Numbered from the stretch's first letter, positions 26,033 to 61,359 are shown. The stretch is 64,000 nt of DNA from Nitrospirota bacterium (GCA_963790025.1 CAWBMP010000004.1:832001-896000), one strand, 5' to 3'. Notes: generated by a model from the sequence alone, not told the origin. Made by a program: numbers and translations.

Positions 26033-26995
26033 TTATTTTAGCTTCTTGGTTACCTTATTCATTATTTTCTGAGGTATCTGAAACCGCCCGGCCCTTAATG
26101 TCTCCATGTTAAGCACCATCTCATATTTTCCTGGAGATTCTATAGGGATAGATGACGGCTTTGCGCCTTTTAAAATCCTTATCGCTTTTTCTCCTGCCAT
26201 ACGGCCACCCTTATAGGAATCATCGCATATGCCGAGAAGTGCCCCTTTTCTCACCAGGTCTTCGAGATGGGTCATAGTGACAACTCCTGCCTTAGTTGCC
26301 ATATCCGCGATCATTGAAATATTGCTGTCGACAAGGTTGCTGCCGGTAAAATAAATCGCATCCGATGTCCGGACAACTGCCGTCATGATTTCAGGAATAT
26401 CCTCAGCCTTAGTCAAGGGGACCGGCTGAATTTTGATAGTATAATTCTTCTGAATATTCAGCATATCTCTAAGTATTGACTCGGAATTCTTTTCATCTGG
26501 AGTATAGAGAACAGCCAGTTTTTTTATCGTCCCGAACTCTTGCACGGTGTCAAGGAGCTTTGATACGGGAAATTTTGTGGTAGTGCCCGTTGTGTTGTTG
26601 CCCGAGCTCTTCCAAGACTTTGCTATTCCTGCCTCCACAGGATCGTAGACGACAGCAAATACTATCGGGGTTGTTTTAATCTCTCTGGCGGTAGCTACAG
26701 TCGCAGAGGTGCCTATGGTAAAGATCAAATCCATTTTTAATGCAGCAAACGTCTTTACCAACTCCGCTGCCCTCGCCTTGTTGGCATCAGCTTGTTCAAT
26801 AATGAACATTGTTTCGGGTCCTTTGAAGCCGGCTTCCTTGAGCACATCGATAAAGCCTTTGACAGCGTCATCATAGCGGGTCTGTCCACTGAAAGCAAGG
26901 ATACCTATCTTTTTTTCCGCTCTCGCTTCCGCAGAAAGAAGGGCGATGCTTGCAACAAAAAAAGCAAGGACCAGAATCTTTTTAACTGTCTGCAT
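26033..26995 (-). CDS. Orphan ABC_sub_bind-type periplasmic binding protein
   Basis: Signal peptide, PIVFAVVYDPV.AG, GNNTTG, LYTPDEKNS, ILKGAKPSSIP. Confidence 0.85.
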   Translation of the reverse strand: MQTVKKILVLAFFVASIALLSAEARAEKKIGILAFSGQTRYDDAVKGFIDVLKEAGFKGPETMFIIEQADANKARAAELVKTFAALKMDLIFTIGTSATVATAREIKTTPIVFAVVYDPVEAGIAKSWKSSGNNTTGTTTKFPVSKLLDTVQEFGTIKKLAVLYTPDEKNSESILRDMLNIQKNYTIKIQPVPLTKAEDIPEIMTAVVRTSDAIYFTGSNLVDSNISMIADMATKAGVVTMTHLEDLVRKGALLGICDDSYKGGRMAGEKAIRILKGAKPSSIPIESPGKYEMVLNMETLRAGRFQIPQKIMNKVTKKLK

Positions 26996-45606: not shown

Positions 45607-47277
45607 ATGGGCGCAGAAATCAATAAAGTAATCTACTCAATGGTAGGCGTCAGCAAGTATTATGATAAAAAGCCGGTATTAAAAGATATTTATCTCTCAT
45701 ATTTCTATGGCGCAAAAATAGGCGTCCTCGGACTCAACGGTTCGGGGAAAAGCTCGCTTTTACGCATTCTGGCGGGAGCGGACAAAGACTTTGGCGGAGA
45801 GACGGTCGTTTCACCCGGCTACACTATCGGCTTCCTTGAACAGGAGCCGGTCCTTGACGGGAACAAAACCGTACGTGACATTGTAGAGGAAGGCATCCAG
45901 GAAATTGTTACTGCGCTCAATGAATACAATGCAATTAACGAGAAATTCTCTGAACCCATGTCCGACGATGAGATGAACAAACTGATCGAGCGTCAGGGTA
46001 GTGTCCAGGAGAAACTTGATGCACTGGATGCATGGAACCTTGATTCACATCTGGAAATGGCAATGGATGCTTTACGCTGCCCTCCGGGAGATACTCTTGT
46101 AAAGGTGCTGTCTGGAGGTGAAAGGCGCCGAGTAGCACTCTGCAGACTTTTGCTGCAAAAACCCGACATACTCCTGCTTGATGAACCGACCAACCATCTT
46201 GATGCGGAATCGGTCGCCTGGCTTGAGCACCACCTCCAAAACTATGCCGGTACCATTATTGCCGTAACGCACGACCGCTATTTTCTCGATAACGTGGCAG
46301 AATGGATACTCGAACTGGACAGAGGACAAGGTATTCCATGGAAGGGGAATTATTCGTCATGGCTTGAGCAGAAAAAGAACAGGCTAGCCCTGGAAGAGAA
46401 AAGCGAAAGCGAGCGCCAGAAAACTCTCCAGCGGGAACTTGAATGGATCCGGATGTCTCCCAAGGGACGACATGCGAAATCAAAGGCACGCATAAATTCC
46501 TATGAGTCCCTTTTCGGCCAGGACAAGGAAAAACAGGAAAAGGAACTTGAGATTTATATACCGCCGGGACCGCGTTTGGGAGATACAGTCATCGAGGCGG
46601 AAAATCTGGGCAAGGCATACGGTGATCAGGTCCTTTTTGAAGGGATGTCTTTTTCCCTGCCTCCCGGTGGGATAGTAGGTATCATCGGCCCCAACGGGGC
46701 AGGGAAAACTACACTTTTTCGCATTATTACAGGACAGGAAAAACCCGATTCAGGAACAATCAAAATCGGTGAGACAGTAAAGCTGGGCTATGTTGACCAA
46801 AGCCGCGATTACCTCGATCCCGATAAGTCCATATGGGAGACAATTTCACATGGAGAAGATACCATCCAACTCGGCAAAAAACAGGTCAGCTCCCGCGGTT
46901 ATGTGGCGCGCTTCAATTTTTCCGGTTCAGACCAGCAGAAAAAAGTGGGCACGTTGTCAGGAGGAGAAAGAAACCGCGTTCACATGGCGAGTATGCTTAA
47001 GGACGGGGCGAATGTGCTGCTGCTTGATGAGCCGACTAATGATCTTGATGTGCATACCATGCGAGCTCTTGAGGAAGCATTGGAGATTTTTGCCGGGTGT
47101 TCGGTAGTAATAAGTCATGACCGATGGTTTCTCGACAGGATTGCAACACATATTCTATCATTCGAGGGAGACGGCAAGGTTGTGTGGTTCGAAGGAAATT
47201 ATACGGATTTCGAAAGTGCCGGAGGCGGAATCGAAGAAATGTGTAAAAAAAGAGTAAGGACCCGACTGACAAGATAG
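45607..47277 (+). CDS. ettA: Energy-dependent translational throttle protein (ABC-F)
   Basis: Two ABC domains, GAKIGVLGLNGSGKS, ELEWIR.SPKGRHAKSKARI, IPPGPRLG. Confidence 0.93.
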   Translation: MGAEINKVIYSMVGVSKYYDKKPVLKDIYLSYFYGAKIGVLGLNGSGKSSLLRILAGADKDFGGETVVSPGYTIGFLEQEPVLDGNKTVRDIVEEGIQEIVTALNEYNAINEKFSEPMSDDEMNKLIERQGSVQEKLDALDAWNLDSHLEMAMDALRCPPGDTLVKVLSGGERRRVALCRLLLQKPDILLLDEPTNHLDAESVAWLEHHLQNYAGTIIAVTHDRYFLDNVAEWILELDRGQGIPWKGNYSSWLEQKKNRLALEEKSESERQKTLQRELEWIRMSPKGRHAKSKARINSYESLFGQDKEKQEKELEIYIPPGPRLGDTVIEAENLGKAYGDQVLFEGMSFSLPPGGIVGIIGPNGAGKTTLFRIITGQEKPDSGTIKIGETVKLGYVDQSRDYLDPDKSIWETISHGEDTIQLGKKQVSSRGYVARFNFSGSDQQKKVGTLSGGERNRVHMASMLKDGANVLLLDEPTNDLDVHTMRALEEALEIFAGCSVVISHDRWFLDRIATHILSFEGDGKVVWFEGNYTDFESAGGGIEEMCKKRVRTRLTR

Positions 47278-47423
47278 AATAAATCATACTACGGGAAATA
47301 AGGGGGCTTCGGGAGTATGCCAAAACCCAAAGTTTTAGTCAAATAAGGTAAAATAATGCCATATTGTACGGTAATGGTGGGACCTCTTTTCCCATGATAC
47401 CGGAACAGGAAAGGATGGATGAA

Positions 47424-48398
47424 ATGATGTGGATGGCAAAAAAGCTTCTGGTTCTCGCAGTGCTTCTTTTAAGTATTCCTCTGCTTTGTATTGATGCAAG
47501 GGCGGATAAGAGGATATGTGTTCTCATGTCTACTGGAGTAGACCGCTATATGGAGACCCAAAAAGGCGTTATAGACCAGCTTGCGACTGACGGCTTTAAA
47601 GAGCCGTCAGTAAAGTACATAATAGAAAATGCATTGGGCAATAAAGCGAAAGCAGCACGATTGGCCCAGAAAATTAAGTCGGAAAAACCGGATTTGATTG
47701 TTGCTATAGGCACCATTGCTGCCGTGGAACTTGCAAAGGCTATTAAGGATACGCCGATAGTCTTTGCGATGGTTTATGACCCTGTGGCAGCAGGAATAGC
47801 CAGGGACTGGAATAGTTCGGGCAATAACACTACCGGCGTCAGTCCTTCAGTGCCAATGTCACTGATTTTTAAGACCCTTAAAGAGTTTGCTCAGGTGAAG
47901 AAGTTAGCGGTACTTTACACGCCCGGTGAAAAAAATTCAGAGACCCAACTACTGGATCTTCAAAATAATCGACCTGGCTCTCAACTCAGTATAGTCCCGG
48001 TCATTCTGGCTGATAGGGACGATGTGTCCCGGAAACTCCCAAAAGTAGCGCTTGAAGCAGATGCAATTTATCTCACGGGCAGCAGTATCGTCGATTCAAC
48101 AGTGCCGATGATCTTAGATATAGCGAATAAGGCAAAAGTGATTACAATCACGCACCTGGAAGATATAGTAGAAAGGGGGGCGCTTTTGGGGATATGCTCA
48201 AATTCATATATTGTTGGCCGGCTGGGGGGCAGGAAGGCAGGAAAAATTTTGAAGGGTGCAAAACCATCATCCATTCATATAGAACGGCTGATGCAGCTGG
48301 CACAGATGGAAGTGATCTTAAACCTGAAGACCGCAAAGAGAGGAGCATTTCAAATTCCACCCGATTTTATGAAAAAAGTGACAAGGACAATTGAATGA
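47424..48398 (+). CDS. Orphan ABC_sub_bind-type periplasmic binding protein (paralog of 26033-26995)
   Basis: PIVFAMVYDPVAAG, SSGNNTTG, LYTPGEKNS, THLED.V..GALLGIC; start approximate. Confidence 0.85.
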   Translation: MMWMAKKLLVLAVLLLSIPLLCIDARADKRICVLMSTGVDRYMETQKGVIDQLATDGFKEPSVKYIIENALGNKAKAARLAQKIKSEKPDLIVAIGTIAAVELAKAIKDTPIVFAMVYDPVAAGIARDWNSSGNNTTGVSPSVPMSLIFKTLKEFAQVKKLAVLYTPGEKNSETQLLDLQNNRPGSQLSIVPVILADRDDVSRKLPKVALEADAIYLTGSSIVDSTVPMILDIANKAKVITITHLEDIVERGALLGICSNSYIVGRLGGRKAGKILKGAKPSSIHIERLMQLAQMEVILNLKTAKRGAFQIPPDFMKKVTRTIE

Positions 48399-48464
48399 AG
48401 CGGAAGACTGCTATCTTTTTTGGAAGATATTTACGGTTTTTATGCTTGCTCACCTGTCGATACA

Positions 48465-49421
48465 CTACTTCACAACTGTTGCCATGTGCAGCACCTGCAC
48501 CGGAATAGTTACACCGATTTTTTTTGCGGTCGTAATGTTGATCCGGATATGCAACCGTTCAGGACGACTGGAGGGTATCTCATTCGGTTTCTTTCCATCA
48601 AGAATAGCCAGCGTCTTGACAGCAGCCATTCTCCCTAATTCTTTGTAGTCCGGGCCTATTCCCATCAATGCCTTGAAATCACTTACCATTTCCGGGAGTG
48701 AGGCAACAGTAGGAATATGAAGTTCGTTAAGCCGCGGAATAATATCTTTCGCCCTGGACATGATAAAAGAATCAGCCGGAAAAAGCACTGCATCTACTTT
48801 TTCATTAAGAGCCTTCTGAACAGCAATGGGTATCGCCTTGTCGCTATCAACAGGAATAGGTATTAATGAATACTTAAAGTCATTCTGAGACATCAACACG
48901 TCGGTAAGCTGAACTGCTGCATTCGGCTCCTTCGGGTTATACATAAAGCCAAGGCGATCGATGTGCAACACCTTGCGCATAATGATAAAAAGGCTTTCTA
49001 TCGGAACGACATTGGAAACCCCCGTCACATTGTTGCCTGAATTTTGCCAACTCTTGATTAGTCCGACTTCGACCGGCCGGGAGACGGCGTTGTACACAAT
49101 AGGGGTGTTTTTGAAGTTATCTTTTAGTTCATCAGTTACTATTGTTCCAAATGCATACAATACCCCATATTTTCTTGGTTCGATGTCGTGGATGATTTTG
49201 GCCAGTTTATTCCTGTCTTGCTTTGCATCAAAAACAGCGAACTGGAAGGCATACTTATCGGATTTCTTCAACCTTTCCAGATATGCTGTTTCCGCGTCTG
49301 TCATCCCGCGCCACAGGATCAAGGCGACAGCCGCATGCTCTTTCGACCATGATGGAACAGCGCTTACTGCAGTCAGCATCACGGCAAAAAGCAAAACACA
49401 TAACCTTAGACGTGATTTCAT
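48465..49421 (-). CDS. Orphan ABC_sub_bind-type periplasmic binding protein (paralog of 59361-60317)
   Basis: ILWRGMT, YAFGTIVT, SGNNVTGVSN, ILDGKKP; GGAGG SD. Confidence 0.85.
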   Translation of the reverse strand: MKSRLRLCVLLFAVMLTAVSAVPSWSKEHAAVALILWRGMTDAETAYLERLKKSDKYAFQFAVFDAKQDRNKLAKIIHDIEPRKYGVLYAFGTIVTDELKDNFKNTPIVYNAVSRPVEVGLIKSWQNSGNNVTGVSNVVPIESLFIIMRKVLHIDRLGFMYNPKEPNAAVQLTDVLMSQNDFKYSLIPIPVDSDKAIPIAVQKALNEKVDAVLFPADSFIMSRAKDIIPRLNELHIPTVASLPEMVSDFKALMGIGPDYKELGRMAAVKTLAILDGKKPNEIPSSRPERLHIRINITTAKKIGVTIPVQVLHMATVVK

Positions 49422-49493
49422 ACAGCCTCCACCGTATTTTGTCGACAATTGACCTGGGGCTTATCTGCTTCTTGTCTTTTCTTGCCCTGTGTC

Positions 49494-51017
49494 CTATGTC
49501 GTCTTGATCTCATTCTCACTAAGATACTTAAGCATAGCATCTACACAGTCTCGATCAAACTGGGTCCCGGCCATATTTTTGAGTTCCTTCACTGCACTGC
49601 CTATATCAAGCGCACGCCGATATGTCCTGTTCGAGGTCATCGCATCAAATGCATCTGCAACCGCCATAATCCGCGCTCCGATATGAATTTCTTCCGCTTT
49701 CAGTCCGTCGGGATATCCGGTGCCGTCATACCTCTCATGATGACTGCGCACAACCATTCCGACTTCCTGCAGGGAAGATATCGATCTCACGATGTAGCTG
49801 CTGATCTCCGGATGTTTTCTCATCTCGAGGACTTCCTCATGGGTCAGGATACCCGCCTTGAGCAGTATATCATCCCTGACCCCGATTTTTCCAATATCAT
49901 GAAGAATAGCAGCGTCCTTTAATAAGCGCATCATATCCTCACTGAGCTTTAAATACTTTGCAATACCAATAGAATAGTTCATAACGCGCATCGAGTGTCC
50001 TCTTGTATACTCATCTCTGGACTCGAGTGCCGCAATCAAAGCCTGCACCGTATCCAGGTAACTCTGTTCCAATTTCTGGAGGCTATACTGATTATTTACA
50101 GCAATGGATGCGGTATTGGTTATAAAGGATAGAATCTGCAAGTCCTGACTGCTGAATTCTGCATTATTGACCTTATTGGTCACGTTGATCACTCCGAGAG
50201 AAATATCGCCGGCGCAAAGTTCAGCACATATCAGAGGCGCACTGATAAAGGACTTGAACTCGGCGTTGAATTTGTTTTCTACCCAGGGAGTCTCATTAAT
50301 GTCCTGAACAAGCATGGGCTTTCTATCTTGCAGTACCCTGCCCGATACATTTTTTCCAAGGGGTATTCTTATCTGGGCAGCGATATCTTCAGAAATTCCC
50401 ACGCCGGCTTTGAAGACCAGTTCCCCCTCTTCGAGCAGTAAAATCGATATTCTCTCACATTGCAGAGACTTGCGGGTAAAATCTATTGTATGATCCAGAA
50501 TTTTCTCCATACTTTTGAGGGAATTCAGCAAGTTGGCAAATTCGTAGAGGGACAGGATAGTCCGGTTTTGGGTTTCTACGACATTTTTCATATGAAACTC
50601 ATTGAGCAGCCGTTTAAGGGTAACTACAAGATCATTATGATCGGTAATCGGCTTTGTCAAATATTTATCAAGCAGATTCTCATTAATTGCGAACACGGCC
50701 GACTCCATTCCCGCGTAACCTGTGAGGAGTACTCTCATGGATGAGGGTGTTATATCACTGGCCGCTTTCAGGAAATCAAGGCCCCGCATTTTCGGCATCA
50801 TCTGATCTGTTAAGAGAAGAGCAATATTTTGGTCCTGTTTCACCAGTTCCTTTATAGTTTCCAACGCCTCGAGGGGGTTATCAAGGAACAGAAGGTTGTA
50901 TTCGTGCCCATTTTGTAATTTGCCTGAAAGCAAAACCTTGAGTGAAGTCAGGAAGTCCCTGTCATCGTCCAGGCAGACGATGAAAGATTCGTGCTTGTCA
51001 TTGTAATCATTGCTCAT
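49494..51017 (-). CDS. REC-GAF-HD-GYP cyclic dinucleotide phosphodiesterase
   Basis: LDDD, TDQMMP, TGY, TKP; GAF; YTRGHS, HDIGK, HHERYDGTGYP. Confidence 0.92.
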   Translation of the reverse strand: MSNDYNDKHESFIVCLDDDRDFLTSLKVLLSGKLQNGHEYNLLFLDNPLEALETIKELVKQDQNIALLLTDQMMPKMRGLDFLKAASDITPSSMRVLLTGYAGMESAVFAINENLLDKYLTKPITDHNDLVVTLKRLLNEFHMKNVVETQNRTILSLYEFANLLNSLKSMEKILDHTIDFTRKSLQCERISILLLEEGELVFKAGVGISEDIAAQIRIPLGKNVSGRVLQDRKPMLVQDINETPWVENKFNAEFKSFISAPLICAELCAGDISLGVINVTNKVNNAEFSSQDLQILSFITNTASIAVNNQYSLQKLEQSYLDTVQALIAALESRDEYTRGHSMRVMNYSIGIAKYLKLSEDMMRLLKDAAILHDIGKIGVRDDILLKAGILTHEEVLEMRKHPEISSYIVRSISSLQEVGMVVRSHHERYDGTGYPDGLKAEEIHIGARIMAVADAFDAMTSNRTYRRALDIGSAVKELKNMAGTQFDRDCVDAMLKYLSENEIKTT

Positions 51018-52560
51018 ATATTACATCCGAATATGAAAATTCTACCCTGTTTTTCCCCTCGGCCTTGGCCTTATACAAGGCCTTATCCGCCCTGGCAAGC
51101 AGTTTTTCCGGGCTGTCTCCGCAGCCTGGATTATATCGCGCCACCCCTATACTTACTGTCAGGCGAACTGAATCTGGAAATTCATGGTCCTGGACCCTGA
51201 CCCGGATCCGTTCAAAAAGACCCCCGATACTTCTTTCATCCCCGCCGCTTATAAGCAATGCAAATTCCTCGCCGCCAAAACGGGCAATGATATCGGACAT
51301 CCTGGCTGCCTTCTTGCACAACATGCCGAGTTCTGCCAAAACTTTATCACCCACCAGGTGCCCGTGAGTGTCATTAATCTCTTTGAAATCGTCTATATCA
51401 GTCATGGCTAAAAACAGCGGGGCCGCGGAGCGCTCGCTGTAAGAGCATTCCCGCTCCATAAGCGAATTTAGTATAAACTTATTATAAAGGCCTGTCAAAT
51501 TATCAAAAAGAGCAAGCTGCTGCGTCTTTTGATACAGCCGCGCATTCAGAATATTGATGCCCAGTATATTCCGTATGAGTGAAGCGGCATATTGTACGAC
51601 GTCCTTGTCCTCCATAGAAGTAATACTTCCCATATTGAGCACGCCTTTAGCCACTTCACACTTATTAATAATATCAGTGGAACCGCTTGCATCGCCCACA
51701 CTGAAAGGAATAATTATTAAAGACTTACCCAGAGATTCTTTATTCAGGAAATCATAAGGTGCCTGCGTGATTTCAGGTAAAACAATAATCCTGTCTTCTC
51801 GAAATGCACACATCATCGGACTTCTGGAATCGGTATCAATCGGTATCGTGTAACTTTCTTCCAGATAGTTGCTTCTTACCATGCACAGTGCGTTTTTCTC
51901 CTCGTCCAGAAGAAATAAAGATGCATACCGCGAATTGAAAATATCCGGTATTTTGGCAATAATAAGGTCCAGGACGTCATCCAGATCCAGTCTTTTAAAG
52001 CCCTGAGACAGATAAGCAATCCTTTCAGCTGCAGAGTGCATGTCCCTTATCCTTTCGTTTTTCAGCTCGAGTTCCTTCACATACTGCTCGATCTCCTTTT
52101 CTGCGCGCTCCTTCTCTTCGTAGAAATGAAAGGTTTTTGCCGCATTAATGATAAGTGTTGCAAAACTGTCATGGTCCTCTATAGGCTTTGCTACATAATA
52201 ATCGAGAATTTTGTTATTGATGGCATATCTGGCAGATTCGACAGATGCATAGCCCGTAAGCAATATTTTTACGGCATTGGGAACTATTACATTGGCCTTC
52301 TCGATTAACTCTATGCCCGTCATTGACGGCATCATCTGGTCACTGACAATTACTGCTATTTTTTCATCTTCTTCCTTAAGTTCCTGGATAAACGCCAGGC
52401 CCTCGTTTGCGTCATTTATCAAATGCCTATCGAGCTCCAAAAACTTAGAATTCGCAATGAGTCGATTGGATAATGCGATATTCAGAGAATTAAGAAAATC
52501 CTTGTCATCATCGATGAACAAGATATGATAAGGACAATTATTCAATTTTCCATCCTCCAT
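51007..52560 (-). CDS. REC-GAF-GGDEF diguanylate cyclase
   Basis: IDDD, SDQMMP, AKP; GAF; DNLTGLYN, DIDDFK, I-site RMSD, GGEEF; start could instead be TTG at 52545. Confidence 0.92.
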   Translation of the reverse strand: MEDGKLNNCPYHILFIDDDKDFLNSLNIALSNRLIANSKFLELDRHLINDANEGLAFIQELKEEDEKIAVIVSDQMMPSMTGIELIEKANVIVPNAVKILLTGYASVESARYAINNKILDYYVAKPIEDHDSFATLIINAAKTFHFYEEKERAEKEIEQYVKELELKNERIRDMHSAAERIAYLSQGFKRLDLDDVLDLIIAKIPDIFNSRYASLFLLDEEKNALCMVRSNYLEESYTIPIDTDSRSPMMCAFREDRIIVLPEITQAPYDFLNKESLGKSLIIIPFSVGDASGSTDIINKCEVAKGVLNMGSITSMEDKDVVQYAASLIRNILGINILNARLYQKTQQLALFDNLTGLYNKFILNSLMERECSYSERSAAPLFLAMTDIDDFKEINDTHGHLVGDKVLAELGMLCKKAARMSDIIARFGGEEFALLISGGDERSIGGLFERIRVRVQDHEFPDSVRLTVSIGVARYNPGCGDSPEKLLARADKALYKAKAEGKNRVEFSYSDVIYEQ

Positions 52561-54388
52561 TCCCATGTTCCCGCGGCAGCAAGACAGTAAATACGGTTTT
52601 CCCCGGAACACTGTCTACTGAAATACGCCCTTCATGTTTCTTGACAATGCCTGACACAATTGAAAGTCCGAGCCCGGTGCCCTTGCCGATTCCCTTTGTT
52701 GTGAAAAAAGGATCAAATAGTCTGGATACATTTTCTCCTGAGATACCGCTACCATTATCCATAACTTGGACACTTATCCATTCCCCTTGCTCCCTGGTCT
52801 CTATTCTTATCAAGCCCTTTTTGGCTTCCATATCGACCTCCTTTATTGCATCATATGAGTTGCTGATCAGATTCGTCCAGACCTGGCTGATTTCACTGGT
52901 GCATCGAATGAGCGGCAGCGGCCCCAGCTCTTTTTCCACTTTAACGTCATATTTAAGTTTGTTGTTCATAAGCAGGAGGACATTCTCAATATTTTCGTTA
53001 ATATCTATGGAAGCGATTTTATCCATATCGGTATAAGCATAATATTTCAAAGCCCTGACAATATCAGTGATCTTCTTTATGCTGGAGTCGCATATCTTAA
53101 TCCCCAAATTGATCGTGCCTATCGAGTCTGACAACTCCATTACCCAGGGTTGCTTGAGCAGGTCTTCGTATTGAGCCAATTTGCCTTTATCGAGAAGATT
53201 ATATTTCGCGAGAATGGCAGCTACTTCCCTTTTATTTTGCACGCCTGCCTCTGTGAGCCATTTACCGATCTCGCTGCTCTTCTTCCACTGCATTCCACTA
53301 TCCATATTGAATTCATTAATGGAAAATTCATCAACGAATGCACAAAACCTGGGCAATTCTTTTTCCGGTAGTCTGTGAATATTGATCAGCAAATCAGTGA
53401 TTTTCCTGGTTCGGTCTCGCAGGTCGCTTGCCACATTGGCGATCGCACCGGCAGGTGTATTGATTTCATGAGCAATCCCCGAGATCAGGACGCCAAGAGA
53501 AGCCATTTTCTCGTTGAGAACTAGTTGCGCCTGGGCATCTTTCAATTTGTTTTCCCTCAACAGAATCTTCTCCCGGGCTGAATGCAGTTCGTTGAAAGAA
53601 CTCTCAAGTCGTTCAGCCATCTCATTGAAGGACTCTGCAAGGAATCCGATCTCATTGTTTTCAGTGACGTTCGCACGGACTGACAGATCGCCCTTTCCGA
53701 GCTGCATCGCATTATCGGCCAATAGCTCAAGAGGCTTAGTCGCACGCTTTATGTTCCAGTAAAGCACAGCAAGCGTGAACAGGATGAAGATGACAAAGGT
53801 GATAAAAGAATAGAGCATCGTACCGAGGGCCTTATTATAGACCGAGTGCCTCGAAACCCCGATATTGATGCCGCCCACAACCCTCTGGTACAGTGGGTCT
53901 ATGACGGGAATAAATGTGTAGAAAGTGGAATATGTCGCGAATGTCTTCCGTACATTTTTTTTAATAAGGGAGCTGATATATTCCGGATAAAATAACTTAC
54001 CTTTTTCTGCCGTGGGGTAGCTGTACAGGACTTTGCAATTTTCATCCACCACATTGGCATAAATTACATCTTTATCTACTTTGACGTCCTTTTCCAGCTC
54101 TTTTTCTATCCCGTCCAGGGAGTTAATCTGCAAACGAAGGCTCAGCAGATCTTCGATAAAAATCTTCATATTACTCCCCGCAACATCTACCCTGGACTCT
54201 ATGAGTGAAAGATATTCATTGCTAAAACAATAAGTTGTAATCACTACGGCAATACATGTATTAATCAAAAGAACAACAGACAAAAATACGGTAAACTGAT
54301 GAGACATGCGGTTCTTTTTTGCCCTGCCATTTACCCGGGCATAAGACTTGTCTTCTGTAATTATCTGTTCTGTCGTTTCAGCCATCAT
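52538..54388 (-). CDS. Membrane sensor histidine kinase (periplasmic sensor-HAMP-HisKA-HATPase)
   Basis: 2 TM, HAMP, EKMASLG...GIAHEINTP, NLISNS, DNGSG, FDPFFTTK, GTGLGL. Confidence 0.92.
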   Translation of the reverse strand: MMAETTEQIITEDKSYARVNGRAKKNRMSHQFTVFLSVVLLINTCIAVVITTYCFSNEYLSLIESRVDVAGSNMKIFIEDLLSLRLQINSLDGIEKELEKDVKVDKDVIYANVVDENCKVLYSYPTAEKGKLFYPEYISSLIKKNVRKTFATYSTFYTFIPVIDPLYQRVVGGINIGVSRHSVYNKALGTMLYSFITFVIFILFTLAVLYWNIKRATKPLELLADNAMQLGKGDLSVRANVTENNEIGFLAESFNEMAERLESSFNELHSAREKILLRENKLKDAQAQLVLNEKMASLGVLISGIAHEINTPAGAIANVASDLRDRTRKITDLLINIHRLPEKELPRFCAFVDEFSINEFNMDSGMQWKKSSEIGKWLTEAGVQNKREVAAILAKYNLLDKGKLAQYEDLLKQPWVMELSDSIGTINLGIKICDSSIKKITDIVRALKYYAYTDMDKIASIDINENIENVLLLMNNKLKYDVKVEKELGPLPLIRCTSEISQVWTNLISNSYDAIKEVDMEAKKGLIRIETREQGEWISVQVMDNGSGISGENVSRLFDPFFTTKGIGKGTGLGLSIVSGIVKKHEGRISVDSVPGKTVFTVLLPREHGNGGWKIE

Positions 54389-54498
54389 GTCACCGTAACT
54401 TTAATCATCCCTTCCTACTGCAAAATAGCCCTCTGCATCGTTACAATACGTTATCGGCGGAAAAAGCAATAAATTGAGCATGCGCCATCTGCCGGGGA

Positions 54499-56517
54499 TT
54501 ATTCGACTTTTCCGGCCCCGCAGGAAGGAAAGAACTTTTCAAAGATGCTTTCTATAGCTTCTTTTTTAACCGGCTTCGTAATATAATCATTTATTCCGGC
54601 AGCAAGCGAATTATTGACATCAACAGAGAGGGCATTGGCAGAAACGGCAATAATAGGGGCCTTTATACCGGACTTACGCATCTCCTGCGTTGCCTCAATC
54701 CCATCCATTTCAGGCATCTGAACATCCATGAGGATTATATCATAAGTTGTCTTCTTCACCATTTCAAGGGCCTCTCTGCCGTTTTGAGCCACATCCGGCC
54801 TGATGGAAAAAAAGGTCTGCAACATCGCTTGCGCCAAAAGGATATTAATCTCAACATCTTCAACAACAAGCACCTTCAAAGCACTGAACCTGTCTGCGGC
54901 AGCCTCCCACCGCCTCGAAGCTGTATCTTTTTTCGACGGCTTCTGAATGGTCCCCAGCACAAAACTGACATAAAACTTAGTCCCAACTCCCTCTTTACTA
55001 ATAACCTCTATATCACCACCCATCAACCTCACAAATGACCTTGACAGGTAAAGGCCAAGACCTGTCCCTCCGTATTTTGAGGAATGCATCTGTTTGAATG
55101 GAACAAAAAGATGATGCATCTTATCAGCCGGGATACCTCTGCCGGTATCCTCCACGCAAAATTTGAACACAGAGGTTCCGGAATAGATGCCGTCCTGGAC
55201 CACCATGGAAAGCTTTATAAAGCCTCTCTCCGTAAATTTTGCCGCATTGCCGAGAAGGTTCAGGAATACTTGTTTGATCCTCATCGGATCTCCCATTACA
55301 TGAAAATCCATTTCCGGGATATCGCTCAGAAATTCAACTGCCTTATTCAGTCTGGAAGAAATTGCCGTCATACATTCCATCAGGAGTTCCCTGAGATCAA
55401 AGGACTCTGTCTTCAGGTCCAATTGTCCGGCATCTATCTTCGAGACATCGAGCACATCGCAGATGAGAGAAAGGAGGTGATCTGCACTCTTCTGCGTATA
55501 TTGCAGCAACTGGCGCTGGTGTGCATCGAGTGAAGTGGTCGACAGGATATCGCCGAACCCTATGATTGAGTTCAGCGGCGTCCTGATTTCGTGGCTCATA
55601 GAGGCAAGAAAGCGCTTCTGCGATTCCAGCGCATGACGGAGATCCTCCGATACCTTAACGAGTTCCTCCGACTTCTGTTTCAAGTCCGCCTCGGCCCTGA
55701 TCCGTTCCGCCAGTTCCTCCTGCGTTTTCGTGTTCGCCTCTTCGAGCTGTTCGGCCATGAAGTTGAAAGACTGTGCGAGAGAGCCGATCTCATTGTTTTC
55801 GCAGACGTCCATGCGGACTGCCAGGTCGCCTTTTCCGAGTGACAGCGCCTTACCGGCCAATACCTCAAGCGGCTTTGTTTTGCGTTTTATGCTCCAGTAC
55901 AGCACCGAGAGCGTGACAAGAATGAAAGCTGCAAAGGTGAAAATAAGATAGCTAAGAGTCCTGGCGGCTTTATTATAAACGGATCGCTTTAAAATCCCTA
56001 TATTTAGACCGCCCACAACTTTCTTGCTCTGAGGGTCTCTGATAGGAATAAATGTATTATAAGAGGAATGCGTGGTGAATGTATTTTGAACTCCGCTTCT
56101 TAGAAGAGGAATAATTTCATCACCATGGAACATCAGACCTTTCTCTGCCTCAGGGAAGCTGTATATAATACGGCTCTTGTCATCCACCACATTTGCATAT
56201 AATGCATTCAGGTCGCCTGTGACATGCTTTTCGAGCTCTCTTGGAACTCCTTCCAATGAGCTGATAGGCAAGCCAAGATTTATGATATCTTCAATAAACG
56301 TTTTTAGATTGTTACCGGCAACTGCCACCCGGGATTGTATTAAAAAAAAATATTCATTCTTAATGTGAATACCCGCAATCGCCACGGCAACACATGTATT
56401 AATGAATAGGACAATGAACAAAAAAGTGATGAATTGATGAGACAGGCGACCCTTTTTCTTTTCCACACTTTTGGACTGAAGACCGGAATTCCCTTGCCGA
56501 GTCGTATGCTCTACCAT
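54499..56517 (-). CDS. Hybrid sensor histidine kinase (periplasmic sensor-HAMP-HisKA-HATPase-REC)
   Basis: 2 TM, HAMP, SHEIRTPL, NAAKFT, GTGLGL, DVQMP, KP. Confidence 0.92.
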   Translation of the reverse strand: MVEHTTRQGNSGLQSKSVEKKKGRLSHQFITFLFIVLFINTCVAVAIAGIHIKNEYFFLIQSRVAVAGNNLKTFIEDIINLGLPISSLEGVPRELEKHVTGDLNALYANVVDDKSRIIYSFPEAEKGLMFHGDEIIPLLRSGVQNTFTTHSSYNTFIPIRDPQSKKVVGGLNIGILKRSVYNKAARTLSYLIFTFAAFILVTLSVLYWSIKRKTKPLEVLAGKALSLGKGDLAVRMDVCENNEIGSLAQSFNFMAEQLEEANTKTQEELAERIRAEADLKQKSEELVKVSEDLRHALESQKRFLASMSHEIRTPLNSIIGFGDILSTTSLDAHQRQLLQYTQKSADHLLSLICDVLDVSKIDAGQLDLKTESFDLRELLMECMTAISSRLNKAVEFLSDIPEMDFHVMGDPMRIKQVFLNLLGNAAKFTERGFIKLSMVVQDGIYSGTSVFKFCVEDTGRGIPADKMHHLFVPFKQMHSSKYGGTGLGLYLSRSFVRLMGGDIEVISKEGVGTKFYVSFVLGTIQKPSKKDTASRRWEAAADRFSALKVLVVEDVEINILLAQAMLQTFFSIRPDVAQNGREALEMVKKTTYDIILMDVQMPEMDGIEATQEMRKSGIKAPIIAVSANALSVDVNNSLAAGINDYITKPVKKEAIESIFEKFFPSCGAGKVE

Positions 56518-56609
56518 CCTTCATACCTCATACCTGATTTTCTTTCAAAAAACTGGCAGAACAACCCGGAAATATATTTTGGAGTCCGGTCAATACAACA
56601 TCGCCGGGA

Positions 56610-57206
56610 TCATCCAAAAGACCCCCATTTATCCAAATCAACCGCTTCAGTCCTTGAAGAAATATAGTTTATGAGATTTTGGAGGAATCCCGTCAATAAT
56701 TCATCAGTTCTTACAAACTTAACACCTACATGAAGCACTTTATTCTCATCTCCAGACCGTGTCCAGCAAACTTTAACTTCAACAAAAATAGGCTGGACAA
56801 AGATTGGGAAATCAACCTCGACCACAAAACTTTGCCCTGGAAATACCTCTCTTGACTTTTCATCCGCTCTCACGAAAAAACCCATTCCGCCCTCACCCAG
56901 GTCAAGCAAGGGGACATGGCTTGACCGTTTAAGGAGAAATTCTGCCGGGGGAACTTCTGTATACATGACACGATAAAGAGGGGGCGACGAAGCTTGCAAA
57001 AGAGATTCAGGCAATGGCCGGAAGAAGCTGCTCTCACCTGCGAGTGCCCGCGCATGTTTCCGTTTCTGACGTAAAACCGGATCCGGCATAGTGAGCGTGG
57101 TTCCGCAAAAGGGGCACTTGCCTGTCTTGCCGGTCTCTTCAGTTTTGCTTCTAAGCACCTTACGGCATTTTTCGCAGCGAAAAGTGGTGATACTATCCAT
57201 GAGCAT
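56610..57206 (-). CDS. Zn-ribbon plus PilZ domain protein
   Basis: CEKC...CPFC; RKHAR; DLGEGGMGF; V.W...GVKF. Confidence 0.75.
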   Translation of the reverse strand: MLMDSITTFRCEKCRKVLRSKTEETGKTGKCPFCGTTLTMPDPVLRQKRKHARALAGESSFFRPLPESLLQASSPPLYRVMYTEVPPAEFLLKRSSHVPLLDLGEGGMGFFVRADEKSREVFPGQSFVVEVDFPIFVQPIFVEVKVCWTRSGDENKVLHVGVKFVRTDELLTGFLQNLINYISSRTEAVDLDKWGSFG

Positions 57207-57245
57207 TAACCCCTATTGCAAGGAAGATTTTTTCTTTCCGACATG

Positions 57246-58328
57246 TTAAACCATAAAACGTTTAATGTCGCCATCTAATTCCCTCGCTTTTTTCAGTTGA
57301 AGGGATATGTATGATTTCTTGAGAACGACTGCAATTTCCGAAGCAATCTTGCTTAATAGCTCCATGTCTTCCTCGGAAAAAGTCTGTCCATCCTTCCGGT
57401 TGTTAACGTTTATCACACCTATGACTTCACCTTGTGTAACGAGCGGGACGCTTAGCAGCGAGTTAGTACGGAAGTTTTCCTTGTTCTGGACAAGACTGCT
57501 AAGATGTTCCTCTGCAGACAGGTCCTTTATCAGCAAGGGTCGGGTCCCCATTGCAACATATCCTGAAATTCCTACGCCCAGGGGGATCTTGACCTTGCTG
57601 ATATCTACGTCAGGTATCCCTATTGTTTTTTTAATTTTCAGGTTCTTACGTTCCTCGTCCATAATCATCAGAGAACAGCGGTCAACCTGTAAATATTTCT
57701 CTATTAACTGCAGTACGGTTTCAAGGAGCTGATCTTCGTCCCTGATACTGCTGAGTTTGTTGCCAATTTCATAGAGCAGCTCAAGCGACCTTGCTTTCTC
57801 TTCCAGTTTCCGTTTTTCCACAAAGCTTTCAAAAAGGAAAGAGAGCTGGTCAAGGAAAACATTGATCAGTTCCATCGTGTCGTTATCCATAACGGTGTAT
57901 GCTTCACCGTACTCGCAGAGAAATAATCCAAGTATTTTGGAGAAAGACGAAATGGGAACAACCGCAATAAATACATCGTCAAATACGAAGGTCTTCTTTT
58001 CTGTCTGCACCGTTATGTTCTCCGAATGGGCCGCTTTGAGGCTGAATTCGCCCAATGACCGCAGATCACCTTGAAAAAAACCTCCTGCATACCTGTACGC
58101 CTGCTTTCCGGCCGCGGCACGAAATCGAAACCGTTCGGACTTCTCGTCAATCAAAAAAAGTGCTGTCTCCTCTGCGCCGGAAATCTTTTTAAAATGGCTG
58201 CATATTAATTCCTCTTTCTGTTCCCGGGATGCCTGGGCTACTATATTCATTAGTGTGCGATGATTGTCGCGAAAACCTTCCAGTCGTTTGATCAAACTTT
58301 CAGTTTTATTTTCGATATTGTTGTTCAT
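57246..58328 (-). CDS. Tandem-GAF protein with no output domain
   Basis: Two GAF-like repeats; second has SLLSVPL...IGVINVNNRKDGQTFSEED. Confidence 0.8.
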   Translation of the reverse strand: MNNNIENKTESLIKRLEGFRDNHRTLMNIVAQASREQKEELICSHFKKISGAEETALFLIDEKSERFRFRAAAGKQAYRYAGGFFQGDLRSLGEFSLKAAHSENITVQTEKKTFVFDDVFIAVVPISSFSKILGLFLCEYGEAYTVMDNDTMELINVFLDQLSFLFESFVEKRKLEEKARSLELLYEIGNKLSSIRDEDQLLETVLQLIEKYLQVDRCSLMIMDEERKNLKIKKTIGIPDVDISKVKIPLGVGISGYVAMGTRPLLIKDLSAEEHLSSLVQNKENFRTNSLLSVPLVTQGEVIGVINVNNRKDGQTFSEEDMELLSKIASEIAVVLKKSYISLQLKKARELDGDIKRFMV

Positions 58329-58358
58329 GCTCCTTTTGGCTCCGTCACAAATTTAATT

Positions 58359-59324
58359 TTATAAACCCATAATATATTTCTGGGATAATGCCAGAATAAC
58401 GGGAATAGTTACAATCCCGAACAAAGTCCCTATGAGGACCATCGATGCAGCTATTCCGGGGCAATCATCAAATTTTTCGTTCAACAGAAAGCTGGTAATA
58501 GGTGCCGGCATGGCCGCCATGAGCATAATAACAGCCTCTGTTATTCTTGCATCCTTAAATAAAACAGCGTTATAGCCGGATGCAACCGGTGACCAGCCCA
58601 CTTGCCGATAAAAAAGAATAAGGCCAAAAGCAATTATCGGTCCCAGGAATACGCGCATGCTTGCTCCGGCCAGGCCATGTTTCAGATCCGCAAGTTTTGT
58701 CCGTTTGAGGGAATATCCGAGGCTTATGATAAGCAGGGGGATTGCCCCTTTTCCAAGGATATCGATCGCTTTACCGAGCATATCCAGATAAAATTTTGTA
58801 TTTTCCGGCACTCTTATCGGAGCCATGGCGACGATAAGGCCGGCCGCAGCCGCATAAACAAAGGGAATCTTGAAGAATTCTTTTATATCGGTTTTCTTGC
58901 TCACCATAAAAACACCCATCGTATAAAGAAACAATACATTTACGACATGGAATATGATGGCCTTGGACAACCCGTCCTTACCATAAAGGAATAATGCCAT
59001 GGGCAAAGCGATGTTCCCGGTGTTCATGAAAATAATCGGCAGATAGATGCCTCTTTGACGTAGTCCAGCAATCCTCATATAAAAATAAGTGATGATCATT
59101 AAAGAGAAAATCAGTATAATCACTGACGAGCCAAGCAGTATAAACTCATTGGCCTGGAATCTATGCTCGGCCAGGGAAGAATAAACCATACACGGAGAAA
59201 ATATATAATAAATCAGATTGGCGATGCTTTTCAGATCCAGTTTGGTATCCTTCTTGGAATAATAATAGCCCACGAAGGCAATAATAAAAGAGGGCAGTAC
59301 CGCTGCAAGTATATTCATTTTCAT
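58359..59324 (-). CDS. AEC (auxin efflux carrier/MdcF-MleP) family transporter
   Basis: About 10 TM; YIFSPC, FMNTGNIALP, AIPLLIISLG, AMPAP. Confidence 0.87.
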   Translation of the reverse strand: MKMNILAAVLPSFIIAFVGYYYSKKDTKLDLKSIANLIYYIFSPCMVYSSLAEHRFQANEFILLGSSVIILIFSLMIITYFYMRIAGLRQRGIYLPIIFMNTGNIALPMALFLYGKDGLSKAIIFHVVNVLFLYTMGVFMVSKKTDIKEFFKIPFVYAAAAGLIVAMAPIRVPENTKFYLDMLGKAIDILGKGAIPLLIISLGYSLKRTKLADLKHGLAGASMRVFLGPIIAFGLILFYRQVGWSPVASGYNAVLFKDARITEAVIMLMAAMPAPITSFLLNEKFDDCPGIAASMVLIGTLFGIVTIPVILALSQKYIMGL

Positions 59325-59360
59325 AAACTTAAATCCTTTTTCGTTAAGATGTTTTTTCCG

Positions 59361-60317
59361 TTACTTTACCACCGTCGCGATGCGCAATATCTGCACCGGC
59401 ACATTTACACCGATTTTTTTTGATGTCTTAAGGTTCACCCTGATATGCAACCGTTCGAGATGGCTGGTAGGTATGTCTTTCGGTTTCTTGCCATCGAGAA
59501 TAGCCAGAGTCTTATAAGCAGCCAGTTGTCCAAGTTCGGTGTAATCCGGTCCCACACCAATAAAGGCCCCGGGGTCTTCCACCAGATCAGGGAGTAAGGC
59601 AACAGTCGGAATTTTAAGATTGTTAAACTGTGTAACAATAATCTTCGCCTGGGACATTATAAGAGAATCCGCAGGAAGAAGCACTGCATCAACTTTTTCA
59701 TCAGCAAGCTTCTTTATAACGGCAGGTATTGCTTTAAAGTGCTCAATCGGAGCCGCAAACATGGTAAACTTATATGCCTTTTGAAGTTGCTGTGCCTCAG
59801 CGAGCTGAATGACCGAGTTGGGCTCTTCAGGGTTGTATAAAAAGCCAAGGCGGTTAATCCGCATTACCATGGAGATAGTATTAAGAATGCTGGCCATAGA
59901 AACCATATTGGAAACTCCTGTCACGTTGTTGCCTGAATGTTCCCAACTCTTAATGAGCCCGGCTTCGACCGGCCTGGCTACAGCATTGAACACAATGGGG
60001 GTGTCCTTGATCTTCTTTTTCAATTCAGCGGTCACGATAGTTCCAAATGCATAGATAAGCTTATATTTCTTATAATCAAGTTTATTGATGATCCTGTCCA
60101 GTTTACCCCTGTCCTGATTTGCATCAATAACTGTGAACCGGAACGCATAGTTACCGGACTCATTCAACTTGGCCTGATACCCTATTTCCCCTTCAGTCAT
60201 CCCTCGCCACAGTATCATGGCTATATCAACTGTCCCTTTGGACCATGCCAGAAAGGCGCTTGCTGCAAGAACTAATACGACAACAAGCACAGCAAGCAGT
60301 CTGGGGTATAATTTCAT
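59361..60317 (-). CDS. Orphan ABC_sub_bind-type periplasmic binding protein
   Basis: Signal peptide, ILWRGMT, YAFGTIVT, SGNNVTGVSN; AAGGAGG SD. Confidence 0.85.
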   Translation of the reverse strand: MKLYPRLLAVLVVVLVLAASAFLAWSKGTVDIAMILWRGMTEGEIGYQAKLNESGNYAFRFTVIDANQDRGKLDRIINKLDYKKYKLIYAFGTIVTAELKKKIKDTPIVFNAVARPVEAGLIKSWEHSGNNVTGVSNMVSMASILNTISMVMRINRLGFLYNPEEPNSVIQLAEAQQLQKAYKFTMFAAPIEHFKAIPAVIKKLADEKVDAVLLPADSLIMSQAKIIVTQFNNLKIPTVALLPDLVEDPGAFIGVGPDYTELGQLAAYKTLAILDGKKPKDIPTSHLERLHIRVNLKTSKKIGVNVPVQILRIATVVK

Positions 60318-60498
60318 GGCCCTCCTTCCGTGCTGTGAAAAGAACTGAAAACATGAATATAATAAAGAAATGAAAAGAATATTTCCACTATTTCATTATT
60401 TTATTATTTGATATCTTCCGTTTTGTCTGACGCGTCATGACATAAACAGGCTGCAGACTTCCATACCTGATTCTTAGTACAAAGTAAACATTTTTACT

Positions 60499-60687
60499 CT
60501 AAGCCCACTCCTTGCATTCGAAAGTACAACGGGCCTTTAATTTGACGCATTTGATATACAAGGTATTATTCTTTTTGTCATCCACAAAAGACGATGAGAG
60601 GCATTGAAGAGGGTCCTCACCACAGATTCCCTTCGCCTTCTCCTTCAGCCATTCTTCGGTCAAGTCATTGAGACTCTTATTTTCCAT
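60499..60687 (-). CDS. Small Cys-rich hypothetical protein (62 aa)
   Basis: GGAGGGGG SD; 5 Cys. Confidence 0.6.
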   Translation of the reverse strand: MENKSLNDLTEEWLKEKAKGICGEDPLQCLSSSFVDDKKNNTLYIKCVKLKARCTFECKEWA

Positions 60688-60750
60688 AAGCCCCCCTCCC
60701 GCAGTAAAGACCTCACCACAGTATTTTTGTGGTTGAACACTTTAAAGCGG

Positions 60751-61359
60751 TCATTTTTCAGTAAGCTTCTTCAGGTCGTCGCAGGCATTCTGATTACCCA
60801 TATCGCACGCCTTTTTATAATCAGCCAACGCCTTCCTTATGAGAGCATACCCCCTCGAAGCATAAGCTTCCATAAAAGCCGGCCTTATTGAAAGCGCCTG
60901 GTTGAAATCCGCGACCGCGTCATCATATTGCTCTTTTCTGGAATAAGCAATACCGCGTACCTGATAGGCAGCGGCAAATCTGGGGCTCAGGGAAATGGCC
61001 TTTGTCTCGTCTTCTATCGCTTTGCCGTATAATTCTTTTCTGAAATAAGCAAGGCCCCGTTCATTGTACATATCGGGATCGTCGGATTTGATGAGAATAG
61101 CTTTATTCAAATCCTCGATCGCTTCATCGTATTTACCTAATTTGTTATAGGCCTTGCCGCGATAATAGTAAGGTTCCGGGACCTGAGGGACCAGGGAAAT
61201 TACCTTGCTGTATTCTTTAACGGCACTGGCGTATAGTCCATCATTGTAAAACCTGGTTGCGTCGTCAAAGATAGCTTGTGGATCAGCGCAGAGGATTGAT
61301 GCTGCACTGCAAACTATAAGCAGGGCTGCAGAGAACATCATCGCAAGTAATAGTTTCAT
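60751..61359 (-). CDS. Exported tetratricopeptide repeat protein
   Basis: Signal peptide; repeated Y..RG.AY...Y..A..D...A. Confidence 0.9.
   Translation of the reverse strand: MKLLLAMMFSAALLIVCSAASILCADPQAIFDDATRFYNDGLYASAVKEYSKVISLVPQVPEPYYYRGKAYNKLGKYDEAIEDLNKAILIKSDDPDMYNERGLAYFRKELYGKAIEDETKAISLSPRFAAAYQVRGIAYSRKEQYDDAVADFNQALSIRPAFMEAYASRGYALIRKALADYKKACDMGNQNACDDLKKLTEK

Follow-up and report, generated by a model that had tools for sequence, protein, structure and literature searches.

On a 64,000-nucleotide (nt) stretch of a Nitrospirota bacterium genome (GCA_963790025.1, CAWBMP010000004.1:832001-896000), here called the window and used for all coordinates unless another locus is named, nine closely spaced minus-strand genes lie at 48465..60317. 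They encode periplasmic solute-binding proteins (SBPs), an AEC-family permease, two histidine kinases (HK1 and HK2), a cyclase and a phosphodiesterase for cyclic di-GMP (c-di-GMP), and PilZ and GAF proteins. A reading made from the sequence alone had proposed that they form a self-contained circuit that senses a small molecule. Do these genes belong together, and what would they do? Calling genes as open reading frames (ORFs) and scanning their translations with Pfam, we found all nine in place with the domains ascribed to them, together with a tenth gene, SBP3, which had been missed. We put the probability that these genes encode a binding-protein-assisted c-di-GMP circuit, running from an SBP through HK2 to the cyclase and phosphodiesterase and on to the PilZ protein, at about 0.6.

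A seven-gene cassette inserted in the window

We looked for the same gene neighborhood in other genomes, a check that the sequence-only reading had itself proposed. A core cassette of HK, REC-GGDEF, REC-GAF-HD-GYP, SBP, AEC, tandem-GAF, and zinc-ribbon-PilZ genes was complete in three other genomes of the 390 in the class and partial in a fourth. Locus L016 (genome G347) carries all seven in that order on a single strand, and L017 (G346) has the same order, with cyclase and GAF genes that look split. L107 (G357) has all seven, with a CHASE hybrid kinase ahead of them, and L015 (G370) has an MtrB/PioB-like porin followed by SBP, HK, REC-GGDEF, and REC-GAF-HD-GYP genes (all four loci by Pfam). 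L015, L016, and L017, the full-length matches in a scan of one genome per species, are from Thermodesulfovibrionia metagenome-assembled genomes (MAGs); the four carrier genomes belong to one family, of an order other than the window's. Because the gene set recurs in other genomes, the arrangement goes beyond chance, and on this ground we rejected the idea of a chance run of signaling genes.

The individual proteins follow the same distribution. True orthologs of the HK2 sensor (E ~1e-78, 50-51% identity) occurred in 4 of the 390 genomes, namely, G346, G347, G357, and G370. Tandem-GAF orthologs (57-63% identity) were present in exactly the first three of these, and AEC orthologs only in the same three, always beside an SBP gene; at 66-68% identity, AEC is the best-conserved protein of the cassette. 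When the four carrier genomes were searched for PilZ-protein orthologs (47-48%), they too were found in G346, G347, and G357, while G370 (91% complete) had no ortholog of either the PilZ or the tandem-GAF protein. SBP1 is 53-54% identical to the cassette SBPs of L016, L017, and L107. This phyletic pattern fits a functional unit. The HK/cyclase and cyclase/phosphodiesterase genes overlap by 11 to 20 nt in L016, as in the window, where the phosphodiesterase start overlaps the cyclase stop by 11 nt, and the three genes are predicted to be translationally coupled in all five genomes.

In the window, the order SBP1-AEC-GAFGAF-PilZ-[HK1]-HK2-cyclase-phosphodiesterase-SBP2 is a circular permutation of the cassette, the order expected of a piece excised from two tandem copies. 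The other cassettes carry one SBP, so the bracketing of the genes by two SBPs, which had been taken as part of the design, is better put down to local history, as is SBP3.

How did the genes come to be here? In blastn comparisons with two same-genus loci, L199 (G002) and L200 (G004), homology stopped at 47216/47218 and restarted at 60496 (G002) or 60750 (G004), with 108 or 272 bases in between. An ABC-F gene, which lies at 45607-47277 in the window and which we counted as outside the block, and the TPR/radical-SAM genes adjoin each other in both relatives. Since the flanking genes are contiguous there with only 108 or 272 bases between them, the DNA at 47217..60495 is extra: by this comparison the block, 13.3 kb with ten genes, is an insertion missing between the same flanks in two same-genus genomes. 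Its GC content is 0.43-0.46, against 0.47-0.48 in the flanks. The block is best explained as a horizontally acquired c-di-GMP signaling cassette with a binding-protein front end. No att-like direct repeats were found at its borders, where the search gave one weak 18-nt inverted pair (47349-47366 and 60386-60403); the pair is AT-rich and 83% complementary, lies just inside both borders, and may be due to chance.

A decayed remnant is present in another genome of the genus, G008 (L198:9673-12138). It holds genes resembling SBP2 and SBP3, together with an AEC fragment that has 81% identity over residues 1 to 95 and one TGA stop, and it is surrounded by Mutator-type, IS110, and resolvase fragments.

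Pfam found no ABC permease, transporter ATPase, or DNA-binding domain among the ten genes, in agreement with what had been claimed for the nine. Rfam gave no match in 44000-64000. A promoter/terminator scan was not informative (40 promoter-like sites versus 26.7±5.4 expected and 8 terminator-like sites versus 12.6 expected); it gave no convincing minus-strand internal terminator in the block.

Binding proteins and the receptors encoded beside them

SBP1 (59361..60317, minus strand) is the binding protein of the cassette type, a periplasmic PF04392 protein with a signal peptide (..LAWS/KG) and a Pfam score of 158 bits. SBP2 (48465..49448, minus strand; 142.4 bits) is a second member of the SBP1 subfamily, with 56% identity to SBP1. 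SBP3 (47364..48398, plus strand; 166.2 bits), convergent with SBP2 and within the inserted block, belongs to the subfamily that accompanies receptors elsewhere. All three exceed the PF04392 gathering cutoff of 25.9 bits, and matches to 6hni, 3lkv, and 3lft, structures of the same Pfam family, had E values of 2.7e-21 to 3.4e-19. Outside the block, SBP4 (PF04392 by Pfam; 26033..26995, minus strand), 51% identical to SBP3, is encoded directly upstream of a resident hybrid kinase. In all, six PF04392 genes occur in the genome, and none adjoins an ABC permease; these binding proteins are orphans without an adjacent transporter.

Might they nevertheless be ordinary ABC components that use a distant permease, such as one of four Liv-type systems, with the neighborhood reflecting co-regulation? 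The three solved PF04392 proteins are aromatic-amino-acid (Tyr, Phe, and Trp) binders of import systems, according to the available portions of PMC6816091 and PMC10443332. A natural PF04392-PF02653 fusion exists (P0033), which would confirm PF02653 as the usual permease kind of the family, and eight PF02653 permease genes are present in the genome. However, these eight form four adjacent pairs, and three of the pairs have their own Peripla_BP_6 protein and two branched-chain-type ATPases. The fourth (C4:329-331 kb) consists of two permeases and one ATPase, with no Peripla_BP_6 protein in the stretch scanned, which took in part of the neighborhood. We saw no operon of the PF04392 type with a single permease. 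Against the NCBIfam TrpX equivalog (NF041285), the three block SBPs scored 142, 125, and 155 bits, with a cutoff of 390. The tight, overlapping SBP-receptor gene pairs that we found in five families are also hard to square with transport, and we consider service to a distant permease very unlikely.

Those gene pairs came from 27 loci in genomes of the class that encode distant homologs (21-28% identity) of the HK1/HK2 sensor plus HAMP in proteins of ~700 residues, drawn from many weaker matches (21-29% identity) to this module in the class. The set comprises the 7 loci first returned and the 20 next-ranked ones whose match extended over the entire module, with partial matches (e.g., G045:C120) skipped; tblastn E values were 1e-11 to 1e-20, and PF17203 (sCache_3_2) matches ranged from 7e-12 to 5e-8. 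In 25 of the 27, tblastn placed a PF04392-like gene directly upstream of the receptor gene on the same strand, and SBP3 was the best match for 23 of these 25 receptor-linked SBPs. Measured from the start of the receptor alignment, the end of the SBP alignment fell between 27 bases inside and 412 bases upstream, most commonly 51 bases upstream of an alignment starting at residue 32; with gaps this short, the two genes must abut or overlap. The positives span five families of the class (f2, f6, f9, f11, and f12). Pfam scans of five of them found an sCache_3_2-HAMP-MCP chemoreceptor and a PF04392 protein in all five; four had an MtrB/PioB-like or porin-like protein upstream, and four had 4-base gene overlaps.

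The pairing is not confined to chemoreceptors; it recurs in SBP4 and its hybrid kinase in the window and in the SBP-HK pair of L015, where a porin gene again comes first. In L019, from a Planctomycetaceae MAG, an HK2-like kinase is preceded by a PF04392 gene at a distance of ~1.2 kb. The loci point to one front end, an SBP and an sCache_3_2 receptor, often with a porin, that has been joined to chemotaxis, kinase, and hybrid-kinase outputs. Such variety of output on a shared front end is expected if the binding protein is the ligand adaptor of the receptor. From the recurrence of the gene pair, we regard the binding-protein/receptor partnership as well supported. The putative co-receptor role that had been proposed for the SBPs is thus supported by the 25 gene pairs and the orphan state of the SBPs; a complex prediction for SBP1 (residues 27-318) with HK2 (residues 56-190) gave a score of 0.18 and a mark of 0.32 and is evidence neither way.

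Two side observations concern these proteins. The porin-SBP-chemoreceptor unit occurs in several families of the class (L201-L220 and L100-L106; e.g., L204:38-4643, L210:35-4697, and L218:1281-5890) and resembles a dedicated chemoreceptor that depends on a binding protein and has a porin of its own. The window's own genome also holds two near-identical gene pairs (L001:8943-10534 on C5 and L002:8411-10002 on C4), in each of which the gene of a secreted 158-amino-acid (aa) sCache_2 protein precedes that of a PF04392 protein sharing 58% identity with SBP1; here a free periplasmic Cache domain is coupled with a binding protein. One copy lies beside an IS200-like transposase.

A different partner for the SBP would be the AEC/Mem_trans family permease (58359..59324, minus strand; PF03547, 74.7 bits with a cutoff of 25.7; TIGR00946 subfamily, 43.7 bits, below its cutoff of 246). 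In this alternative, the two form a binding-protein-dependent secondary transporter like those of the TRAP and TTT families, the kinase uses its own sCache domain to sense its ligand directly, and c-di-GMP and PilZ do no more than regulate the transporter. The AEC gene comes right after the SBP gene in all four full cassettes (the window, L016, L017, and L107), its product is conserved as described above, the G008 remnant retains two SBP genes and the AEC fragment together, and Cache domains commonly bind ligands directly. On the other side, the 25 receptor loci pair PF04392 with a sensor and have no AEC gene within ±2.6 kb, L015 has SBP-HK-cyclase-phosphodiesterase without AEC in a genome in which no tandem-GAF or PilZ orthologs were found either, and no AEC-family transporter is known to rely on a binding protein. 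We judge this alternative unlikely.

The kinases and the c-di-GMP proteins

HK2 (52538..54388, minus strand) is the kinase of the cassette. Its layout is a transmembrane (TM) segment, a PDC/sCache-like periplasmic domain (residues ~56-190), a second TM segment, HAMP, a dimerization/phospho-acceptor (DHp) region, and HATPase, with HAMP and HATPase detected by Pfam. An AlphaFold2 model of the periplasmic domain shows helices followed by five strands. PF17203 matched neither HK1 nor HK2 at E<=0.01, and a fragment of an HK2 ortholog, P0004, carries a precomputed PF17203 annotation. H307 (AHEINTP), the predicted phospho-acceptor, is invariant in the orthologs. A large protein collection yielded ~20 full-length orthologs, with 44-52% identity over residues 1 to 300, and the 12 that entered our alignment show 51-59% identity from end to end. 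For the sensor half (residues 1 to 300), we found no ortholog in 40 relatives, 9 of them of the same genus. A metagenome scan with the HK2 alignment returned at least 80 loci; those listed all matched the kinase core only (from residue ~105 or later), with no full-length ortholog among them, and the peptide patterns proved too generic.

The DHp region of HK2 is unusual. Pfam HisKA did not match it, and at residues ~300-450 (window 53000-53500) ~110 additional, largely helical residues come between the H-box AHEINTPAG and the second helix. Kinases of this type are widespread: 582 of 599 pattern-matched stretches in a collection of species encode relatives. In another protein, P0021 (818 aa), the same sensor and HAMP are joined to HPt (PF01627) and HATPase in place of the HK2 core, an output swap.

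HK1 (54499..56517, minus strand), with the layout TM-sensor-TM-HAMP-HisKA-HATPase-REC (HAMP, HisKA, HATPase, and REC by Pfam), combines two sources. Residues 21 to 318 are 50% identical to the HK2 sensor plus HAMP, and the transmitter halves of the two kinases are of unrelated types. Residues 267 to 662, in contrast, share 72.7% identity with the transmitter and REC of the resident hybrid kinase (23343..26018, minus strand; 891 aa, HAMP-PAS-HisKA-HATPase-REC by Pfam), which lies outside the block and whose N terminus matches HK1 residues 19 to 260 at 24% identity (E 1.4e-5). These identities indicate that HK1 is a window-specific chimera in which a resident hybrid-kinase core was joined to the incoming sensor, and the resident kinase is the likely donor of its kinase half. 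The kinases had been called twins, as if paired by design; the orthologous cassettes hold one HK2-type kinase, and that idea falls away with the local origin of HK1. In L107, the CHASE hybrid kinase (L107:7050-9533) stands directly upstream of the cassette kinase, where the window has HK1, so that a hybrid kinase beside an HK2-type kinase has been seen twice, with different sensors.

Downstream of HK2 lie the two c-di-GMP enzymes, whose motifs (RxxD I-site, GGEEF, HD, and GYP) can be read directly in the translations, as had been reported. The cyclase (51007..52611, minus strand; Pfam GGDEF 132.7 bits and REC 33.1 bits) has the string RMSD-IIARF-GGEEF, that is, an RxxD I-site, a five-residue spacer, and a GG(D/E)EF motif. 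RxxD is kept in all four of the sequences compared, and the second motif is GGEEF in two orthologs and GGEEI in two. The true start of the cyclase is probably M16/M18 (~52560-52566), downstream of the called one, because the orthologs begin at the equivalent of residue ~23. Between REC and GGDEF, the GAF domain that had been proposed was undetected by Pfam (E>0.01). An hhalign comparison of this middle region with the GAF of the neighboring protein gave E 0.0093 and a probability of 4%, and a language-model look-up placed it among GAF clusters with a score of 0.94. The region is probably a divergent GAF; of the proposed REC-GAF-GGDEF architecture, REC, GGDEF, and the motifs are borne out by Pfam and the translation, and the middle domain is weakly GAF-like.

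The REC-GAF-HD-GYP phosphodiesterase (49494..51017, minus strand; Pfam HD_5 124 bits, GAF 49 bits, and REC 40.6 bits) contains ILHDIGK and HHERYDGTGYP, and the HD and HHERYDGxGYP residues are invariant in five of five sequences. It scored 230.8 bits against the NosR-family REC c-di-GMP phosphodiesterase model (NCBIfam NF053512; cutoff of 400), the best stretch being the HD-GYP half only. With domains and catalytic motifs intact, both enzymes are putatively active. Their REC domains are 39% identical, and the orthologs of both enzymes keep D34-D36, D91, T119, and K142 without exception. Two paralogous, intact REC domains would fit one cognate kinase.

The candidate for readout is a 198-aa protein (56610..57206, minus strand) in which a zinc ribbon with invariant C11, C14, C31, and C34 (CxxC...CxxC) precedes a PilZ domain (Pfam 32.3 bits with a cutoff of 22.5, covering profile positions 24-92 only). 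R49-K-x-x-R53 is invariant. D102-x-(S/G)-x-x-G107 has S in two of four sequences and G in the window. Binding of c-di-GMP by this protein is plausible from these motifs.

The remaining member is a stand-alone 360-aa protein (57246..58328, minus strand) without an output domain, described in the sequence-only reading as GAF-GAF. Pfam placed a GAF at residues 197-336 and had no match to the first half, and an hhalign comparison of the N- and C-terminal halves gave a probability of 0.3%, from alignments of 3 rows that are too shallow. An AlphaFold model (pLDDT of 70.8) was then informative: Foldseek matched it over its whole length to the tandem GAFs of PDE2A, CyaB2, and PDE5A (1mc0, E 1.6e-13 over 356 columns; 1ykd, E 3.9e-12; 3lfv, TMq 0.59). 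Because the matches to tandem-GAF structures run along the full length, we accept the first-half GAF, and the protein is modeled as two consecutive GAF folds, as had been described. Across three orthologs, the alignment columns of its C-terminal half average 88% identity, and the model resembles the single cAMP-bound GAF of Lcd1 (5w10; 30% identity). The likeness to Lcd1 and the near-invariant second GAF point to a cyclic nucleotide or other small ligand.

A predicted circuit and its place among known systems

Put together from gene anatomy and family knowledge, the circuit would work as follows. A small periplasmic ligand would be bound by an orphan PF04392 protein, SBP1 and possibly also SBP2 and SBP3. 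The loaded SBP would dock onto the PDC/sCache-like domain of HK2 and, in this genome, perhaps onto HK1 too, which has the same sensor. HK2 would autophosphorylate at H307 and pass the phosphate to the receivers of the cyclase and the HD-GYP phosphodiesterase; the local c-di-GMP level would shift, and the zinc-ribbon PilZ protein would read it. Since the block has no transcription factor or DNA-binding protein, the output would be post-translational, with the AEC permease or the tandem-GAF protein as the most economical target. GAF domains on three proteins may add cytoplasmic small-molecule input, possibly a cyclic nucleotide. Opposing enzymes under one kinase could be reconciled by opposite effects of phosphorylation or by GAF gating. 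The self-contained c-di-GMP circuit predicted in the sequence-only reading thus gains support from comparative genomics, in the conserved cassette and the intact paralogous REC domains.

Several points count against this reading. A single kinase acting on both a cyclase and a phosphodiesterase needs an extra rule that is not visible in the sequence. In full cassettes, the SBP gene comes two genes after the kinase and immediately ahead of AEC, so that its product could serve the permease, and an sCache domain can bind ligand alone, without a binding protein. Fifteen of the 25 positive receptor loci come from one family, so the 25 amount to far fewer independent events. One of the two exceptions, L101, has 1.5 kb of upstream sequence without an SBP; the other, L102, is a 1,976-base contig with 544 bases upstream, too short to tell. 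Fusions of PF04392 to a kinase or GGDEF domain were not found, the two long-protein matches having a PF02653 permease or other binding-protein domains, which is weak evidence. The two GGEEI cyclases (L016:11814-13355 and L107:11699-13261) depart from the motif while retaining RxxD. In the PilZ protein, RxxxR sits 48 residues before the DxSxxG-like motif, which reads DLGEGG in the window; the usual gap is about 20 to 30 residues. Finally, Pfam found no HPt domain in the ten genes of the block, so HK1 has no HPt partner there.

A quorum-like signal had also been suggested: AEC would export a self-made signal, the SBP and HK would sense it, and c-di-GMP would be toggled in response. AEC relatives include efflux carriers, as the family name says, and ScrABC and LuxPQ are precedents for SBP-sensed autoinducers, of which ScrABC acts on c-di-GMP (PMC8050422, in the portion available). 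However, neither the ten genes nor the orthologous cassettes include a signal-synthase gene; a synthase could be encoded elsewhere. The role given to AEC as exporter or clearer of the ligand finds no support either. This SBP-sensor front end is coupled mostly to chemoreceptors, in better keeping with an environmental cue, and we hold an autoinducer loop to be highly improbable.

The proposed binding-protein-assisted circuit has known relatives. SBP-stimulated kinases and GGDEF/EAL proteins are an established mechanism, exemplified by LuxP/LuxQ, TorT/TorS, NspS/MbaA, and ScrB/ScrC in the available portion of PMC8050422, and such kinases are often encoded beside their sbp gene (PMC11113362, likewise in part). 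Like the block, LuxP/LuxQ, TorT/TorS, XylFII/LytS, and AioX/AioS have a transporter-free periplasmic SBP encoded near a kinase with a periplasmic PAS/Cache-like or helical sensor, and AioS has an sCache-like domain (PMC8050422). By anatomy the block is of this kind, with a transporter-free SBP encoded together with a periplasmic-sensor receptor (TM-domain-TM-HAMP), and its SBP would likewise bind the sensor. The SBP family is different: PF04392 here, and Peripla_BP_4, Peripla_BP_1, SBP_bac_11, SBP_bac_5, SBP_bac_1, and others in the known systems, with no PF04392 protein in the available part of the table of SBP-assisted systems in PMC8050422. The output differs too, since LuxPQ/TorTS-type systems end in transcription, whereas the block ends in c-di-GMP enzymes without a DNA-binding regulator.

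In NspS/MbaA of Vibrio cholerae and ScrB/ScrC of V. parahaemolyticus, a periplasmic SBP controls c-di-GMP synthesis and breakdown, as proposed here (PMC8050422, in the portion available). There, however, the SBP acts directly on one membrane GGDEF-EAL protein, whereas the block has a two-component step, an HD-GYP phosphodiesterase, and separate soluble enzymes. The aromatic-amino-acid SBPs of ABC importers (TrpX, CD0873, VC_1101, and SP1069) share the Pfam family of SBP1 to SBP3; unlike them, the block SBPs fall below the TrpX cutoff, have no adjoining permease or ATPase, and are encoded with signaling genes. The nearest kinase-to-c-di-GMP-enzyme networks are RpfC/RpfG and H-NOX HnoK/HnoB/HnoD, in which a sensor kinase phosphorylates REC-bearing c-di-GMP enzymes; RpfG has the REC-HD-GYP architecture, and HnoK acts on several c-di-GMP regulators at once. 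Those networks are not known to use a periplasmic SBP or to have an AEC, tandem-GAF, or PilZ gene in the operon, and the block has paralogous REC-GAF cyclase and phosphodiesterase genes side by side. In Tar-MBP, Tsr-LsrB, and CtpL-PstS, the SBP also serves a transporter and is as a rule encoded away from the receptor; the porin-SBP-sCache_3_2 triads look like dedicated versions of the same principle, with overlapping genes and without a transporter. What would set the block apart from the SBP-stimulated kinases and the SBP-controlled c-di-GMP enzymes is the SBP family, the two-component step, the separate REC-GAF enzyme pair, and the co-conserved AEC, tandem-GAF, and zinc-ribbon PilZ proteins. 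In the full-text literature searched, which lacks most subscription journals and so is not proof of absence, we found no kinase, chemoreceptor, or c-di-GMP enzyme described as acting with a PF04392 protein.

A bolder version, which we think quite unlikely, would make the system a transcription-free transport-control loop that rests on an as yet undescribed class of receptors. PF04392 proteins would be obligate sCache_3_2 adaptors across Thermodesulfovibrionia and beyond, often with their own porin and with chemoreceptors, kinases, and hybrid kinases as outputs. The ligand, perhaps an aromatic or indole-like acid to go by the family's known ligands, would set c-di-GMP through the enzyme pair; PilZ would gate AEC for that same ligand, and the tandem-GAF protein would report on the ligand pool in the cytoplasm or on a cyclic nucleotide.

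Receptors assisted by binding proteins are believed to be widespread, but few have been characterized. The loci described here offer a rule that can be tested, by which an sCache_3_2 receptor gene is immediately preceded by a PF04392 gene. They also offer a compact path, contained in seven genes, that would lead from a periplasmic ligand through a two-component step to c-di-GMP synthesis, breakdown, and readout without a transcription factor. Rebuilt in a model host, the cassette could show how one kinase drives opposing enzymes. HK1, in which a resident hybrid-kinase core appears joined to an incoming sensor, would illustrate how sensory front ends are reshuffled.

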